From a virus (Duplodnaviria > Caudoviricetes): DNA of 28,033 bases. The position numbers and the translations under genes were made by a program. Below are positions 7,480 to 26,543 of the stretch, piece by piece; position 1 is the first letter of the stretch, and each line of letters opens with the position of its first letter. A model generated the notes under the pieces. It was not told where the DNA came from. It worked only from the letters and a program-made list of their open reading frames with translations, and made no database searches. Where the stretch lies: positions 1-28,033 of the IMG/VR virus record IMGVR_UViG_3300022670_001834; one strand, 5' to 3'.

Positions 7480-8052
7480 TTGAAAGTAGATAAGTTCCCA
7501 ATGACCCAATTGTCAAGTATTTCTGTCCATCACTTATCTATTATTGAGAAAAATGATTTTTGGGAAACCCCGACTGATATGTTATTCAAAGCGATGCTTG
7601 ACTATGACATCAATCCTCAACTAGATGTCTGCACTACCAAATCTATTGCCAAACGTCAGAAATTCTATAAATTTTTTACAAAAGAATCCTCGGGATTGAA
7701 AAAGGAATGGAAAGTTAATTTTTACATGAACCCTCCTTATTCACAAATTGGTTCATGGATGAATCACTGCTACGAACAAATCAAAAAGCACGAAGTCGAG
7801 GGATTGATTCTCACCTATGCAAAGACAGATACTAAATGGTGGCACATGTTCGTTGAAGGCAATTCCGATGTCGAGGTTCACTTTGTAGAGGGTAGGGTAA
7901 AGTTCCTAAAAAATGGAAAGATTCCGACTTGGTGTAAAATATGTAAAAAAAACTATCAGGGCATAAAGATTTGTCCTAAATGTAATGGCAAGACATCGGA
8001 GAATGTGGCACCTTATCCTTCTGTATGGTTAGTTTTTAGGAGACCATCATGA
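7480..8052 (+). CDS. Phage-type DNA N6-adenine methyltransferase (Dam_phage family) with Zn-ribbon insertion
   Basis: NDFWETP, LDVC, catalytic MNPPYS, 'AKTDTKWWH', 'GRVKF', 'APYPSVWLVF'. Inserted CKIC-x9-CPKC. Confidence 0.85.
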   Translation: MKVDKFPMTQLSSISVHHLSIIEKNDFWETPTDMLFKAMLDYDINPQLDVCTTKSIAKRQKFYKFFTKESSGLKKEWKVNFYMNPPYSQIGSWMNHCYEQIKKHEVEGLILTYAKTDTKWWHMFVEGNSDVEVHFVEGRVKFLKNGKIPTWCKICKKNYQGIKICPKCNGKTSENVAPYPSVWLVFRRPS

Positions 8053-10476: not shown

Positions 10477-10839
10477 GTGAAAATTATCTATAAAACTTCG
10501 ATTGATTGTGCTCATCATATACCAGATACAGAGGAATTAATCACTAAAAAATGCTCGAGACTTCACGGTCATACCTATAACTTTGAGTTTGTGTTTGACC
10601 TTCCCTCATTAAAAAAATATTGGAAAAAAGAGTTTGTTGACTTTGCCCTCATCAAAGATTTTGTCGAATCAATCCTATCAAAATATGATCACCATAACCT
10701 AGATGATTTTAACATCTATACAGTTGAACAGCTTGTTCTCATTGTAAAGGCAACCATCATTGAAAAATTTGCATGGCAGAACGAAAAGGCTCTAACCATA
10801 AGGATAATGGAAACTGCAAAGTTTGGTGTAGAATGTTAG
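10477..10839 (+). CDS. queD: 6-carboxy-5,6,7,8-tetrahydropterin synthase
   Basis: AHH, KCSRLHGHTY, VDF..IK, YDHHNL, TVE, MET motifs. Confidence 0.92.
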   Translation: MKIIYKTSIDCAHHIPDTEELITKKCSRLHGHTYNFEFVFDLPSLKKYWKKEFVDFALIKDFVESILSKYDHHNLDDFNIYTVEQLVLIVKATIIEKFAWQNEKALTIRIMETAKFGVEC

Positions 10840-11438
10840 CTATCAATGAGGAATTTGAATCGTTTCAAGGAGAAGGATTTCATACTGGAATCCGAATGTA
10901 TTTTGTCAGAACGCAAGGATGCGATGTCGGTTGTTATTTCTGCGATACCAAATACACTTGGAGAGGGGGATTACAGGAAACTGACGAATACGATATCATA
11001 AGGAGAGCAAGCAAGACTAGAGCAGAATGGATTTGTATAACCGGTGGTGAACCCTTAGAGCAGAATATTAGCGATCTAGTTCATCTTGCCCACGATAACA
11101 AATACAAGGTACAGATCGAAACTTCGGGAATGTATTATAATCCAATCGTTGAAAAGATAGACTGGGTATGCCTTAGTCCAAAAGAGCTCTTTGCTAAAAA
11201 AGGAATGAAAATGGCTTTGGGAATCCTAAATTATACTGACGAGGTTAAATGCGTAATCACATCAAAAGATGATATCACTTACTACCTTGACCAATACCGA
11301 GACTTCAAAGGAGTCAAAACTTTTCAACCTGTAGATAATAAACCTGAACTTGCCGAGATGGTGCTAAATATGTCAAGCAAGTTAGCAGGGGAATGGAAAG
11401 TAATGTGCCAACAGCATAAGCTTTTGAAACTACGATGA
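10833..11438 (+). CDS. queE: 7-carboxy-7-deazaguanine synthase (radical SAM)
   Basis: ATG 10833. EFESFQGEG, FVRTQGCDVGCYFCDT (CxxxCxxC), ITGGEP, IETSG, LSPK, QP, QQHK. Confidence 0.93.
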   Translation: MLAINEEFESFQGEGFHTGIRMYFVRTQGCDVGCYFCDTKYTWRGGLQETDEYDIIRRASKTRAEWICITGGEPLEQNISDLVHLAHDNKYKVQIETSGMYYNPIVEKIDWVCLSPKELFAKKGMKMALGILNYTDEVKCVITSKDDITYYLDQYRDFKGVKTFQPVDNKPELAEMVLNMSSKLAGEWKVMCQQHKLLKLR

Positions 11439-11551
11439 ATCTACGGATTGGTGAATTATGGTTGACTTGGAGATGTTGGGTGTGTAATAAACGATACTGG
11501 CTTGTTTCAAATTTAGAATGTAAGACCCATTATAGAGTGATGGATCATTGA
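11435..11551 (+). CDS. Zn-binding microprotein (38 aa) within the que operon
   Basis: MNLRIGELWLTWRCWVCNKRYWLVSNLECKTHYRVMDH. ATGA overlap with queE and TTGA overlap with queC. Confidence 0.55.
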   Translation: MNLRIGELWLTWRCWVCNKRYWLVSNLECKTHYRVMDH

Positions 11552-12192
11552 GTAGGGCATTAGTCCTATTATCAGGAGGAATGGATTCAGCATCGGTACT
11601 TGCTTATGCCACTACTCAAGATTTTACGCTTAGAGGTTTGTTTTTTAATTATGGTCAACAGCACCATAAGGAAGGGGAATCGGCACGGAAAATAGCAAAG
11701 CACTATGATATTCCTCTCGAAATTTTGACCCTTGACTTGGGAAAATTCAAGTCAGCATTGTTAAAAGGTTCTAAAATCCTAATACCTAACAAGGCAGTAG
11801 AGGGGAAGATTCCCCATACTTACGTTCCATACCGTAATGTGATATTTCTCTCTATTGCTTTTGGTTTTGCCGAATCCAAAAGAATGAGTGCTGTTTATTA
11901 TGGTGCCAATGCAGTTGACTATTCAGGATATCCAGACTGCCGACCTGAATTTGTCGAAGCATACTCAAATATGTCTAAGATAATTAATCCAAGAATCGAT
12001 CTTATTACTCCCCTCCTCTCAATGTCAAAGCAGGAGATCGTAGAGTTTGGCAATAGATTCTATACACCTTTTCACCTTACTTGGTCATGTTATAGGGGAG
12101 GATTGAAGGCATGTGGTAAATGCCCTAGTTGTGAGTTAAGATTAAAAGGCTTCAAACAAGCAGGATTAATTGATCCCATTGAGTACGAGTGA
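11548..12192 (+). CDS. queC: 7-cyano-7-deazaguanine (preQ0) synthase
   Basis: LLSGGMDS, NYGQ, YVPYRN, GYPDCRPEF, TWSCY, CGKCPSCELR. Confidence 0.95.
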   Translation: MSRALVLLSGGMDSASVLAYATTQDFTLRGLFFNYGQQHHKEGESARKIAKHYDIPLEILTLDLGKFKSALLKGSKILIPNKAVEGKIPHTYVPYRNVIFLSIAFGFAESKRMSAVYYGANAVDYSGYPDCRPEFVEAYSNMSKIINPRIDLITPLLSMSKQEIVEFGNRFYTPFHLTWSCYRGGLKACGKCPSCELRLKGFKQAGLIDPIEYE

Positions 12193-12709
12193 GAAATATT
12201 TCTATCTACTTGGTGGCAAAGACTTCCCAGATAGTACTTACAAAAGAACTCAAAAATTTTACGAGGAACTAGAGATTAAACGAGAATACCAAAAGTTCAC
12301 AACCTTTGAAACCAAACTTGACGAGATGATAGTAATCAATGGAATCAAGGTCTTTTCATTCTGTGAACATCACCTATTGCCATTCTTTGGTTACTGTTCT
12401 ATTGGGTACATTCCTGATGGTCATTTATTAGGACTCTCAAAGTTTCAAAGGCTAGTAGATAAGATAGCATCCAAACCGACTTTACAGGAAAATATTACAA
12501 GCGAGATTGCCGACAGTTTGGATAAAAAACTCTATCCAAAAGGGTTGGGAGTTGCCATGACTTGCGTTCATACCTGTATGTTTGGAAGGGGAATCAATAC
12601 ATCGACCTGCACGGTCAATACTCAAATCGTTAAAGGATTCATCAAAGATAAAGCAGAAACAAGGAACGAATTTTTAGGAAGGGTAAGGATTGCAGATATA
12701 CTTCGCTGA
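12170..12709 (+). CDS. folE: GTP cyclohydrolase I (alternative start TTG 12179)
   Basis: SFCEHHLLPFFG, GYIP, LGLSK..R, LQE, HTCM..RG motifs. Confidence 0.93.
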   Translation: MIPLSTSEKYFYLLGGKDFPDSTYKRTQKFYEELEIKREYQKFTTFETKLDEMIVINGIKVFSFCEHHLLPFFGYCSIGYIPDGHLLGLSKFQRLVDKIASKPTLQENITSEIADSLDKKLYPKGLGVAMTCVHTCMFGRGINTSTCTVNTQIVKGFIKDKAETRNEFLGRVRIADILR

Positions 12710-13451
12710 TACTGCAATCAATCTATTCTACTTGTATCATGAGGTAGGTGCTCGCTACTTCCTTACTTCATTCTGGTATAACAAAAAAATAGGTCCATAT
12801 AAAAAATTCAAGGAAACCCATCCTGATGGAACCATCATGCTGGATTCTGGTGCCTTTACTGCATTAATGAGGAATGAAACAATCGACATCGAAGCCTATG
12901 CAAAATTTTGTAATGAAGTAAAAGAATGGATAACCTATTTTGTCAATCTTGACGTTATAGGAGATGGTGAGGCATCAAAGGTCAATTATGACTATCTGCG
13001 AGATCAGGGCATTGAATCGCTACCTGTTTACCATATTGGAGAGGATATCAAATATCTCAAATATTATCTAAGTCGGTCAAATCACATCGGTTTAGGTGGC
13101 TTGGTTCCCTATGCTCGCGATCAGCGAAAACTTGAAAACTTCCTTACCAGAACGCTTGAACTGATTCCAAAAGATAAGCAAGTCCATATGTTCGGAATCA
13201 CCACGCCCTCTATTCTGATGAGGTTTAGCGATAGAATACACTCTGCTGACTCTGTTGCAGCGACTGATATCACTGGAAACCAGAACAGAGGATATAGTTT
13301 TAGTGGTTTGCCCAAAGGATTAAAAACCATTTTCAATACTCCTAGACTCACTCCTGAACAAAGGGATTGGCTAAACAAATACAATGCCTATATTTTTGTC
13401 AAATTAGAAAAACAAATTAATGATTACTTGGTGACTAAACAAATTGGCTAA
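12690..13451 (+). CDS. dpdA: Viral DNA 7-deazaguanine transglycosylase (TGT-fold, DpdA-like)
   Basis: MLDSGAFT, NLDVIG, LPVYH, IGLGGLV, VHMFG, SADS. Lacks the Zn/RNA-binding parts of tRNA TGTs. Lies within the preQ0 operon. Confidence 0.8.
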   Translation: MQIYFADTAINLFYLYHEVGARYFLTSFWYNKKIGPYKKFKETHPDGTIMLDSGAFTALMRNETIDIEAYAKFCNEVKEWITYFVNLDVIGDGEASKVNYDYLRDQGIESLPVYHIGEDIKYLKYYLSRSNHIGLGGLVPYARDQRKLENFLTRTLELIPKDKQVHMFGITTPSILMRFSDRIHSADSVAATDITGNQNRGYSFSGLPKGLKTIFNTPRLTPEQRDWLNKYNAYIFVKLEKQINDYLVTKQIG

Positions 13452-14295
13452 TGAGGTTGAATTAAAATCCGAGATCCAATTCCTCGATATTGATTCCATC
13501 AAGCCAAATGATTACAATCCAAACTATATGCCTGAATCTTTGTTCAATGACCTAACCGATGATATCAAGAGGAATGGATTCTATGGTGCAATTATTATCA
13601 ATAAGGAAAAAATTATCGTAGATGGCGAGCACAGATGGAGGGCATTAAAAAAATTAGGTGTCAAAGCTTGCCCTGTTATCCTAGATGATTCCTTAACAAA
13701 AGATACCTCAAAAATAATGACATTACGACTTAATCGTGAAAGAGGATTCCTTGTACCTGTAGAGACTGGGAATCTTTTAACAAATCTAACAAAGACTGTT
13801 CCAATAGATATCCTAAGTGAAGCGACTGCGATTCCAATGCCTGAACTAACAATACTAACTAATCTTAGCTATGAACCCGGACTTCAAGACTTAAGCAAGA
13901 GTGGAGAAGTGATCAACTGGTCAAGAATTGATACGCTAATCAATACTCTTTGTACCAGAATCAAGGACGAACTAGATGGAAAACCTTTGACTGTTTGCAC
14001 AATTTTAAGGGGAGGACTAATACCTGCCAGATTAGTTGCCGATAGAATGAACATTCCAAATATCCAAATCCTAAATGGAAACGAAACTGAAACTCCTGCT
14101 TTGATCGTTGATGATATCTACGATACAGGAAAGACTCATAAAAAATATGGAAAGGGGGTTCAAGTCTATGCAACCTTATTCAAACGCAAAGATATGAAAA
14201 GTCCTAAAAATCTAATCTATGGAACTGAAACTCTTGGAGCAGAGTATGTAGTATTTCCTTGGGATAGGTTCGAATACAAACGAAACCAGAAATAG
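13444..14295 (+). CDS. Fusion of ParB/Srx-like N-terminal domain and type I purine phosphoribosyltransferase
   Basis: N-terminus: IKPNDYNPN..NGF..IVDGEHRWRA..RLNRERG. C-terminus: W..I..L, ILRGGLIPARLVA, LIVDDIYDTGKT (PRPP loop), YVVFPWD. Confidence 0.85.
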   Translation: MANEVELKSEIQFLDIDSIKPNDYNPNYMPESLFNDLTDDIKRNGFYGAIIINKEKIIVDGEHRWRALKKLGVKACPVILDDSLTKDTSKIMTLRLNRERGFLVPVETGNLLTNLTKTVPIDILSEATAIPMPELTILTNLSYEPGLQDLSKSGEVINWSRIDTLINTLCTRIKDELDGKPLTVCTILRGGLIPARLVADRMNIPNIQILNGNETETPALIVDDIYDTGKTHKKYGKGVQVYATLFKRKDMKSPKNLIYGTETLGAEYVVFPWDRFEYKRNQK

Positions 14296-25598: not shown

Positions 25599-26543
25599 AT
25601 GATCATCTGGATCACAGGTCCAAGTAAGTCAGGCAAAACTACTCTAGCAAAAAATCTCCAATCCAAACTCGTTCAATGGGTTCTCCTAGACGGAGATCAA
25701 ATCAGGCGTATTACCGATGATTTAGGATTCTCGGCTAAGGATAGAATGGAAAACTGCAAGAGGATCGCAAGGCTAGCTCGAAATCTTGACTATCAAGGAT
25801 TCAATGTTTTAGTCTCTGTAATTGCTCCCTTCCGAAATATTCGTGATGAGGTAGATAAGATATGCAGTCCAAAGTGGGTATGCTTGCCAAAAGCATTAGA
25901 GGAAACAGAATACGAGAATCCTTACGAATCTCCAATTAATGCCTTGTTTGTTGAGATAAACGAGGAGGAAAGAATCATCGAGGAGTTAAAACTATTCAGC
26001 GTATTTGTAGTTGGAACTAGAAGGTCAGGAACTGGTCTAATGGTTCAGATCCTAGAAAAATTGGGAGTCCAAATGTTCTATGATCTCAAAGGAGTCAAGG
26101 GCTACGAACCTTATGAGATCCTTACCCATGCCATGACAAAATTCTACAAAATGGCATACACACCTTATACTGGTTGTAAGATATTGCTTCCTTTCGTTCC
26201 AGTTAAGATTGATATGATTACAGACGTTCCATGCAAGGTGGTCTTTATTTGGCGAGAGCCTAAAGCTATTCTTGATTCACAAAAGAGATTTTGGCATGAA
26301 CAAACAACTAATGCTCCGAAGGAATTGATTGATAAGCTTTTGGAACAAATTGATACAGAGCAAACTTCTCAACTCCTTGAATTAAGATCATTAAACGTCA
26401 AAGTATTGATTTCAGAGTATGAAAAAATACTAGCCGATCCCAAATCGGAAATCCAAAAGATTGCCGACTTTATCAGATCGGAGGAGCCAATCGAGAAGGC
26501 CATCAAGCTCGTAAAAATTCCAATAGTAAAAACACTTGTATAG
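25599..26543 (+). CDS. cysC: Adenylylsulfate (APS) kinase-sulfotransferase fusion
   Basis: IWITGPSKSGKTT, LDGDQIR, LGFSAKDR.EN..R, SVIAP and YE.P (CysC). Then VVGTRRSGT (5'-PSB), FIWREP...DS (3'-PB) and YEKILADP...IADFI (sulfotransferase). Confidence 0.85.
   Translation: MIIWITGPSKSGKTTLAKNLQSKLVQWVLLDGDQIRRITDDLGFSAKDRMENCKRIARLARNLDYQGFNVLVSVIAPFRNIRDEVDKICSPKWVCLPKALEETEYENPYESPINALFVEINEEERIIEELKLFSVFVVGTRRSGTGLMVQILEKLGVQMFYDLKGVKGYEPYEILTHAMTKFYKMAYTPYTGCKILLPFVPVKIDMITDVPCKVVFIWREPKAILDSQKRFWHEQTTNAPKELIDKLLEQIDTEQTSQLLELRSLNVKVLISEYEKILADPKSEIQKIADFIRSEEPIEKAIKLVKIPIVKTLV

Follow-up and report, generated by a model that had tools for sequence, protein, structure and literature searches.

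The gene at positions 13444 to 14295 of the DNA analysed here, which joins a ParB/Srx-fold domain to a purine phosphoribosyltransferase (PRT) domain, is a real and conserved variant of the known viral Dpd system. It represents an accessory that is conserved in viral Dpd clusters and apparently undescribed, and we give roughly even chances to the reading that it assists DpdA and salvages the excised guanine towards GTP and FolE. The window, i.e. the whole stretch of 28,033 nucleotides, belongs to a virus record classed as a provirus and 70% complete. The genes queD, queE, queC, folE and a viral TGT/DpdA gene lie upstream of the fusion, and terminase and head genes lie downstream. The features of this region are the following:

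10477 to 10839, plus strand: queD, CPH4 synthase (PF01242, E 1.2e-16)
10773 to 11438, plus strand: queE, CDG synthase (TIGR04322, E 9.9e-33), with a true start that is probably more 3'
11548 to 12192, plus strand: queC, preQ0 synthase (TIGR00364, passes the cut-off)
12170 to 12709, plus strand: folE, GTP cyclohydrolase I (PF01227, E 5.6e-45)
12690 to 13451, plus strand: dpdA, DpdA1-like DNA guanine transglycosylase (phrog_887, E 2.9e-37; PADLOC DpdA, E 2e-4)
13430 to 13434, plus strand: GGTGA, putative ribosome-binding site, 9 nt 5' of the TTG start
13444 to 14295, plus strand: ParB-PRT fusion gene, 283 aa, TTG start
13444 to 13863, plus strand: ParB/Srx-fold domain (residues ~1-100) and three short helices (105-140), assigned from Pfam, Noc/ParB matches and conservation
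13909 to 14292, plus strand: Gpt/HGXPRT-type purine PRT domain with a shortened loop II, assigned from the fold match to Sulfolobus HGXPRT 5bqo

The viral Dpd gene set is thus complete in the window, and from the gene content the predicted product of the operon is dPreQ0. The residues D52, D88 and D187 of the window DpdA are invariant in all 13 aligned rows, and its best matches among cultured phages are DpdA1-type (e.g. Dp-1, phiSM and PaMx25). By its sequence, the enzyme is DpdA1-like, has the catalytic Asp residues and is predicted to use free bases as substrates. Among relatives that carry the fusion, queC was not found in the operon in three loci (L001, L002 and L056) and a divergent QueC-like ATP pyrophosphatase takes its place in two others (L003:5628-6371 and L058:8366-9142); therefore, the inserted base may differ between them. 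Further features of the window are an adenine methyltransferase of the Dam family that carries a zinc ribbon at its C-terminus, 5' of the que operon (7480-8052), and, among the late genes, a protein with an adenylyl-sulfate kinase-like N-terminal domain (residues 1-88) and a C-terminal part (25599-26543). The tetranucleotide GCGC does not occur between positions 1 and 28033, against 20 occurrences expected (both strands counted), GGCC occurs 10 times against 62 and GTAC 66 times against 142. These deficits suggest restriction-site avoidance despite the modification operon.

The fusion gene is a single uninterrupted frame of 283 codons. Its overlap with the stop of dpdA, noted in the first-pass annotation, amounts to 8 nt. 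Both halves pass the curated Pfam cut-offs, ParB_N (PF02195) over residues 10-83 with an E-value of 2.5e-8 and Pribosyltran with 5.7e-7, and the motifs DGEHR, VDDIYDTGKT and VFPW are located at residues 60-64, 222-231 and 270-273. The predicted structure (mean pLDDT 88.8, pTM 0.50) consists of two confident domains joined by a loose linker, in which residues 147-151 score below 50. The same annotation had described both halves as intact, which holds for the ParB_N domain and for the named motifs; the PRT half, however, has no flexible catalytic loop II. It had also considered that a missed stop codon might account for the fusion. The gene is genuine, since full-length fusions recur among its relatives: 42 of 56 matches (the query and 41 others) span 89% or more of the query length, with identities of 32-68%, and in a profile search 24 of the best 150 representatives at 50% identity are full-length fusions, among them a divergent clade whose members measure about 300-356 aa. 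The gene dpdA lies immediately 5' of the fusion in 15 of 16 loci, several of which are duplicate contigs; the sixteenth (L007) begins inside the gene and has no upstream DNA. The gene order is the same in the one locus of the divergent clade with context (L104). The suggestion that the fusion is an undescribed Dpd accessory agrees with its conservation in Dpd clusters and with the lack of any account of it in the accessible parts of the literature searched.

The ParB half has Noc/ParB matches in profile and fold searches and contains the motifs NPN (25-27), DGEHR (60-64) and RLNRERG (95-101), the last of which follows the pattern RxNRExG in the family. The box at residues 60-64 reads D/N-G-E-H-R in the family, and not DGQQR or DGQHR as in DpdB and DndB (PMC10164549). 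No DpdB or DndB profile of NCBIfam or PADLOC matched the ParB half, and none of Pfam matched any of 22 members. NF041060 did not match the ParB half either, but it also had no match in any of 14 control genomes. By its motif and the absent profile matches, the ParB half is not a member of the DpdB/DndB family and can be no more than an analogue of DpdB in function; of the DpdB-like role proposed in the first-pass annotation, the analogy in function is possible and the kinship is lost. A chromosome-partition ParB is likewise rejected, because the TIGR00180 score is 35.9 bits against a cut-off of 58.45, although a GEHRWRA box is present, and no parA adjoins the fusion among the window genes scanned.

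Two systems indicate what such a protein could do beside a DNA-modifying enzyme. As described in PMC10164549, bacterial DpdA can bring free guanine into DNA by exchange and requires the ParB-fold ATPase DpdB, the ATPase being necessary even though no stable DpdA-DpdB complex was obtained. A phage ParB composed of a nucleotide-binding domain (NBD), helices, a linker and a C-terminal domain (CTD) activates its cognate T-dioxygenase on dsDNA; its CTD is needed, mutations of the NTP site are tolerated, and the complex could not be trapped (PMC13229309, where Iyer 2013 is cited for ParB proteins in DNA-modification clusters). Most stand-alone ParBs linked to dpdA have a C-terminal extension at the position where the fusion carries the PRT, which may supply dimerization in place of the ParB C-terminal domain.

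The PRT half displays the type I PRT fold and the hood motif PW. Its top fold match in Foldseek is Sulfolobus HGXPRT (PDB code 5bqo; E 3.2e-10), and archaeal HGXPRT, its adenine-using paralogue and Gpt match it best in structure and profile searches; the NCBIfam XPRT score, 34.5 bits, is far below the cut-off of 138. The PRPP loop is conserved, with D/E223, D224 and D227 in 42 of 42 fusions, and the catalytic Asp227, encoded at 14122-14124, is also retained in 22 of 22 rows of a further set of fusions. R/K248 is present in 42 of 42 fusions and D/E274 in 41 of 42, and Y268 of the window protein is aromatic. A basic residue 248 and a C-terminal Asp 274 are, in the alignment made here, what we take to be the marks of 6-oxopurine use. 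Position 274 is acidic as in XGPRT and HGXPRT and is an Asn in the adenine enzyme Sulfolobus GpT-1. The sequence thus favours a canonical 6-oxopurine as substrate of the PRT.

A departure from these enzymes is found between the RGG and DD motifs, which are separated by 34 residues in the fusion and by 51 in Yersinia XGPRT; loop II, about 17 residues shorter, is therefore missing as a flexible catalytic element. The spacing is at most 39 in 40 of 41 near-clade fusions measured, and the divergent clade has a loop of intermediate length. Among viral PRTs, 29 of 30 fused to FolE and 12 of 13 fused to ParB have a short loop II, and 32 of the 43 stand-alone ones measured have a long one, whereas in stand-alone host PRTs it is short in all 66 measured. 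In Trypanosoma cruzi HGPRT, removal of 7 loop residues lowers kcat 380- to 840-fold (PMC9536471). With loop II 17 residues short, the activity of the fused PRT may therefore be low.

The first-pass annotation had left open whether the PRT acts on guanine or converts preQ0 to a nucleotide. The second possibility is a serious one because TubE, a PRT specific for CDG, belongs to the same family and was aligned by its authors with Sulfolobus 4Z1O (PMC6112128). We examined 30 Streptomyces PRT loci (L453-L482), the best matches from 301 genomes. A Gly occupies the catalytic Asp site in 13 of these PRTs, 10 of which adjoin que or folE genes, while none of the 17 with Asp does so; the Gly members L455, L457 and L478 have no que gene within 1.5 kb. 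The change from Asp to Gly in the PRPP loop is thus a possible candidate signature of 7-deazapurine PRTs, a rule derived here from the gene context of these Streptomyces loci. The Asp presumably contacts N7 of the purine. By motif count, 78 of 80 stand-alone viral PRTs and 30 of 32 of those fused to FolE keep it. The retention of Asp in the fusion, against Gly beside the Streptomyces que and folE genes, favours guanine over preQ0 or CDG; guanine salvage is, as judged from these residues, the best-supported role, and the invariant Asp227 disfavours preQ0 or CDG as bases that are made into nucleotides.

The PRT half is most closely related to stand-alone chromosomal genes of Nitrososphaerota (79 of 80 loci), with best identities of 37-50%. 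A strong single copy is present in 37 of 81 genomes of the class, and these host homologues are unlinked to que genes. In two quick trees, the fusion and host PRTs form one clade, with a support of 97 when one long F2 row falls outside it and of 99 when three long rows are left out. The near fusions are interspersed with Nitrosopumilales genes and the divergent fusions with Nitrososphaerales genes, and the comparison of transfer directions between viral and host PRTs gave a p-AU of 0.315. In the same quick trees, the stand-alone loop-less PRT of Nitrosopumilales (e.g. L210:9929-10381, within L137-L215) nests among the viral fusion domains; its capture from viruses is possible. Because of the kinship of the PRT half with their chromosomal genes, Nitrososphaerota, i.e. 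ammonia-oxidizing archaea, are the likely hosts of the fusion viruses. These likely hosts encode a close PRT of their own, which leaves the reason for a viral copy unexplained.

The two halves also occur as separate genes in viral Dpd clusters. The PRT motifs of the fusion alignments, used alone, retrieved 120 viral loci, 4 of which had no PRT match, and the remainder cluster into 47 lineages (70% identity). In 44 of these the PRT is not fused to ParB; 35 of the 44 have two or more of the genes folE, queD, queE, queC and dpdA within the fetched 10 kb, and the other 9 have fewer than two. Any of these genes is found near 5 of 124 cellular PRT loci, which serve here as the comparison set in place of random viruses. 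Hpt-type rather than Gpt-type PRTs occupy the slot in 7 lineages, and full-loop Gpt- and Hpt-type enzymes are also found there beside folE. In one locus (L398), dpdA, ParB and an Hpt-type PRT stand next to each other as separate genes, in the same order as in the fusion.

In the reverse direction, of 560 viral dpdA matches that were confirmed, the best 80 were taken and, minus 3 fusion loci, reduced to 61 lineages. A PRT is encoded in 29 of the 49 folE-positive lineages and in none of the 12 folE-negative ones; restricted to the 5 of the latter with sufficient flank, the difference has a Fisher p of 0.017, for lineages that are not fully independent. Among the PRT reading frames of these dpdA loci, 24 of 33 are fused to FolE and none to ParB. 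ParB adjoins dpdA in 19 of the 61 lineages, 5 of them without folE, and is nearly always no more than about 30 nt away from the stop of dpdA, also where que genes are lacking. No PRT was found within 8 kb in 20 of the 49 folE-positive lineages and no ParB in 42 of the 61, and phages of the CAjan, 9g and iggy types are absent among the PRT matches; both halves are thus dispensable elsewhere. ParB thus travels with dpdA and PRT with folE, and the virus group of the window has joined both. The proposal that guanine is recycled at the DNA is not needed by these data, since PRT and ParB are far commoner as separate genes or as PRT-FolE; the fusion represents a local joining of two accessories.

Cultured phages display the same arrangements. 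The PRT lies immediately 5' of folE in Flavobacterium phage immuto_2-6A, the order is folE-PRT in a Brevundimonas phage and gpt-queE in MIJ3, and Sphingomonas phage MMDA13 and Vibrio phage VpKK5 encode PRT-FolE fusions annotated as FolE only. Cultured Stenotrophomonas and Pseudomonas phages likewise have PRT-FolE proteins labelled GTP cyclohydrolase only; examples of the fusion are L337:3966-4850, L217:6944-7831 and L409:5998-6900. The PRT of phiST is located outside the Dpd cluster, near ribonucleotide reductase, and is followed by a gene with what we read as a kinase-like P-loop (L408:6989-8033), and in Brevundimonas phage MaInes ribonucleotide reductase, dNMP kinase, folE and PRT are consecutive (L218:5623-7456); a nucleotide-level role of the PRT is possible in phages of this kind. 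Unusually long frames, measured from stop to stop, are a PRT-FolE frame of 610 aa (L364:6011-7840) and dpdA frames of 606 and 692 aa (L344:7986-9803 and L361:7797-9872), which are perhaps further fusions or inteins.

FolE, QueD, QueE and QueC use one GTP for each preQ0, and each exchange by DpdA frees one guanine. In the reading that we prefer, the ParB half would activate DpdA on double-stranded DNA, and the PRT half would make GMP from the guanine freed by DpdA. Each of these two parts we hold to be rather probable in itself, and the two together have roughly even odds. The GMP would be converted by host kinases to GTP and pass to FolE, closing the loop, and salvage would also remove the guanine that competes with preQ0 for DpdA. 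The PRT, a normally oligomeric enzyme, would stand in for the C-terminal dimerization domain that seems to be present in the stand-alone ParBs linked to dpdA.

PurR and PyrR are regulators with a PRT fold, and PurR is a weak match of the PRT half. The loop-less PRT could be mainly a ligand-binding and dimerizing module of this kind, which responds to guanine nucleotide status through PRPP, GMP or guanine and, by switching ParB, controls DpdA or the operon; in PRT-FolE proteins the module would likewise control FolE. The difference in loop length between fused and stand-alone viral PRTs, the severe effect of loop loss on HGPRT and the position of the PRT at the place of a ParB C-terminal domain all argue for such a sensor. 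By contrast, the short loop is also fixed in the 66 host genes that have no partner, all catalytic residues are retained, and full-loop enzymes fill the same slot by folE. The short loop and the HGPRT deletion data keep this explanation in consideration, at odds of between one in four and one in five. A fuller version, in which the loop-less PRT senses guanine, GMP or PRPP and dimerizes a ParB clamp that licenses DpdA, the mini-PRT gates FolE in many phages and the archaeal copy is captured from viruses, is less probable still; if it were true, excision of guanine from viral DNA would be confined to times at which the cell is able to recycle it.

A third explanation regards the fusion as the outcome of long adjacency in an operon, with a PRT for general purine salvage and a ParB for transcriptional control or packaging. 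The position of the phiST and Brevundimonas PRTs alongside ribonucleotide reductase and other genes of general nucleotide metabolism is consistent with it, as are the terminase genes that lie 3' of the fusion in L056-L058 and the common fusion of ParB to methyltransferases. We nevertheless consider it improbable, given the Dpd and Que genes around most non-fused viral PRTs (the 9 lineages with fewer than two aside), the frequency of PRT-FolE and the nearly constant place of ParB at the dpdA stop. Least probable is the ribosylation of preQ0 or CDG as by TubE, for a nucleotide store or a nucleotide-level route into DNA, which the family membership of TubE and the presence of a PRT in both cultured phages found with 100% replacement of G (phiST and immuto_2-6A; PMC10516641) speak for, and which the invariant Asp227, the free-base substrate of a DpdA1-like enzyme, the unlinked host homologue and the lack of a polymerase or ribonucleotide reductase among the proteins scanned in the window (of a record 70% complete) speak against.

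Modification with 7-deazaguanine spends one GTP and discards one guanine for each base. The recurrent presence of a PRT, in over half of the sampled folE-positive viral dpdA lineages and often within genes annotated as GTP cyclohydrolase, suggests that a step of recycling or regulation has been overlooked, and the wider result, that PRT and ParB are common accessories of viral Dpd systems, outweighs the fusion itself. The ParB genes beside dpdA suggest, by analogy with bacterial DpdA and its need for DpdB, that an activator is required by some viral DpdAs. According to PMC10516641, DpdA1 replaces at most 30% of G and DpdA3 100%, and DpdA3, DpdA4 and DpdL showed no activity in E. coli, for which missing helpers are one candidate cause. 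The fusion also places 7-deazaguanine modification in viruses that likely infect ammonia-oxidizing archaea. Neither "ParB" nor "phosphoribosyl" occurs in the accessible main texts of PMC6884629 and PMC10516641, "phosphoribosyl" does not occur in that of PMC10484667, and the available supplementary text of PMC10516641 gave no matches; PRT terms are absent from the main text and six supplementary files of PMC12704722. The accessible literature describes neither a ParB-PRT fusion nor a PRT that serves viral Dpd systems as an accessory, including PMC5699537, PMC12783734, PMC8651126 and the main texts of bioRxiv 2026.10.19.760177 and 2026.04.15.718813, and an earlier mention is possible. The parts of the pathway literature searched do not state the fate of the guanine freed by DpdA.

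A comparison with known systems reveals which features are shared and which are particular to the fusion. The window has all five core genes of the viral FolE-QueD-QueE-QueC-DpdA1 system for dPreQ0 (CAjan, Rosebush and iggy), to which it adds the ParB-PRT gene. The PRT half resembles Gpt/XGPRT and archaeal HGXPRT in its fold, the RGG loop, the DD-x-x-D-T-G PRPP loop, residues 248 and 268 and the PW-D at 272-274; it differs in the shortened loop II, the fused ParB and the XPRT score below cut-off. Like the phage ParB activators, the ParB half has an NBD, short helices and a linker, and its gene lies by that of a post-replicative DNA-modifying enzyme; by contrast, its partner is a transglycosylase and a PRT replaces the CTD, the comparison with ParB176 being one of layout. 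With bacterial DpdB, a DndB/DGQQR ParB-fold ATPase, it shares a ParB-superfamily fold next to dpdA, but carries DGEHR or NGEHR in a ParB part of about 140 aa, against 352 positions in the DpdB model. Finally, the PRT half has its family and its folE/que neighbourhood in common with the deazapurine PRTs TubE and ToyH; unlike the Streptomyces PRTs beside que genes, which have a full loop II, it combines a short loop II with an Asp in place of their Gly.
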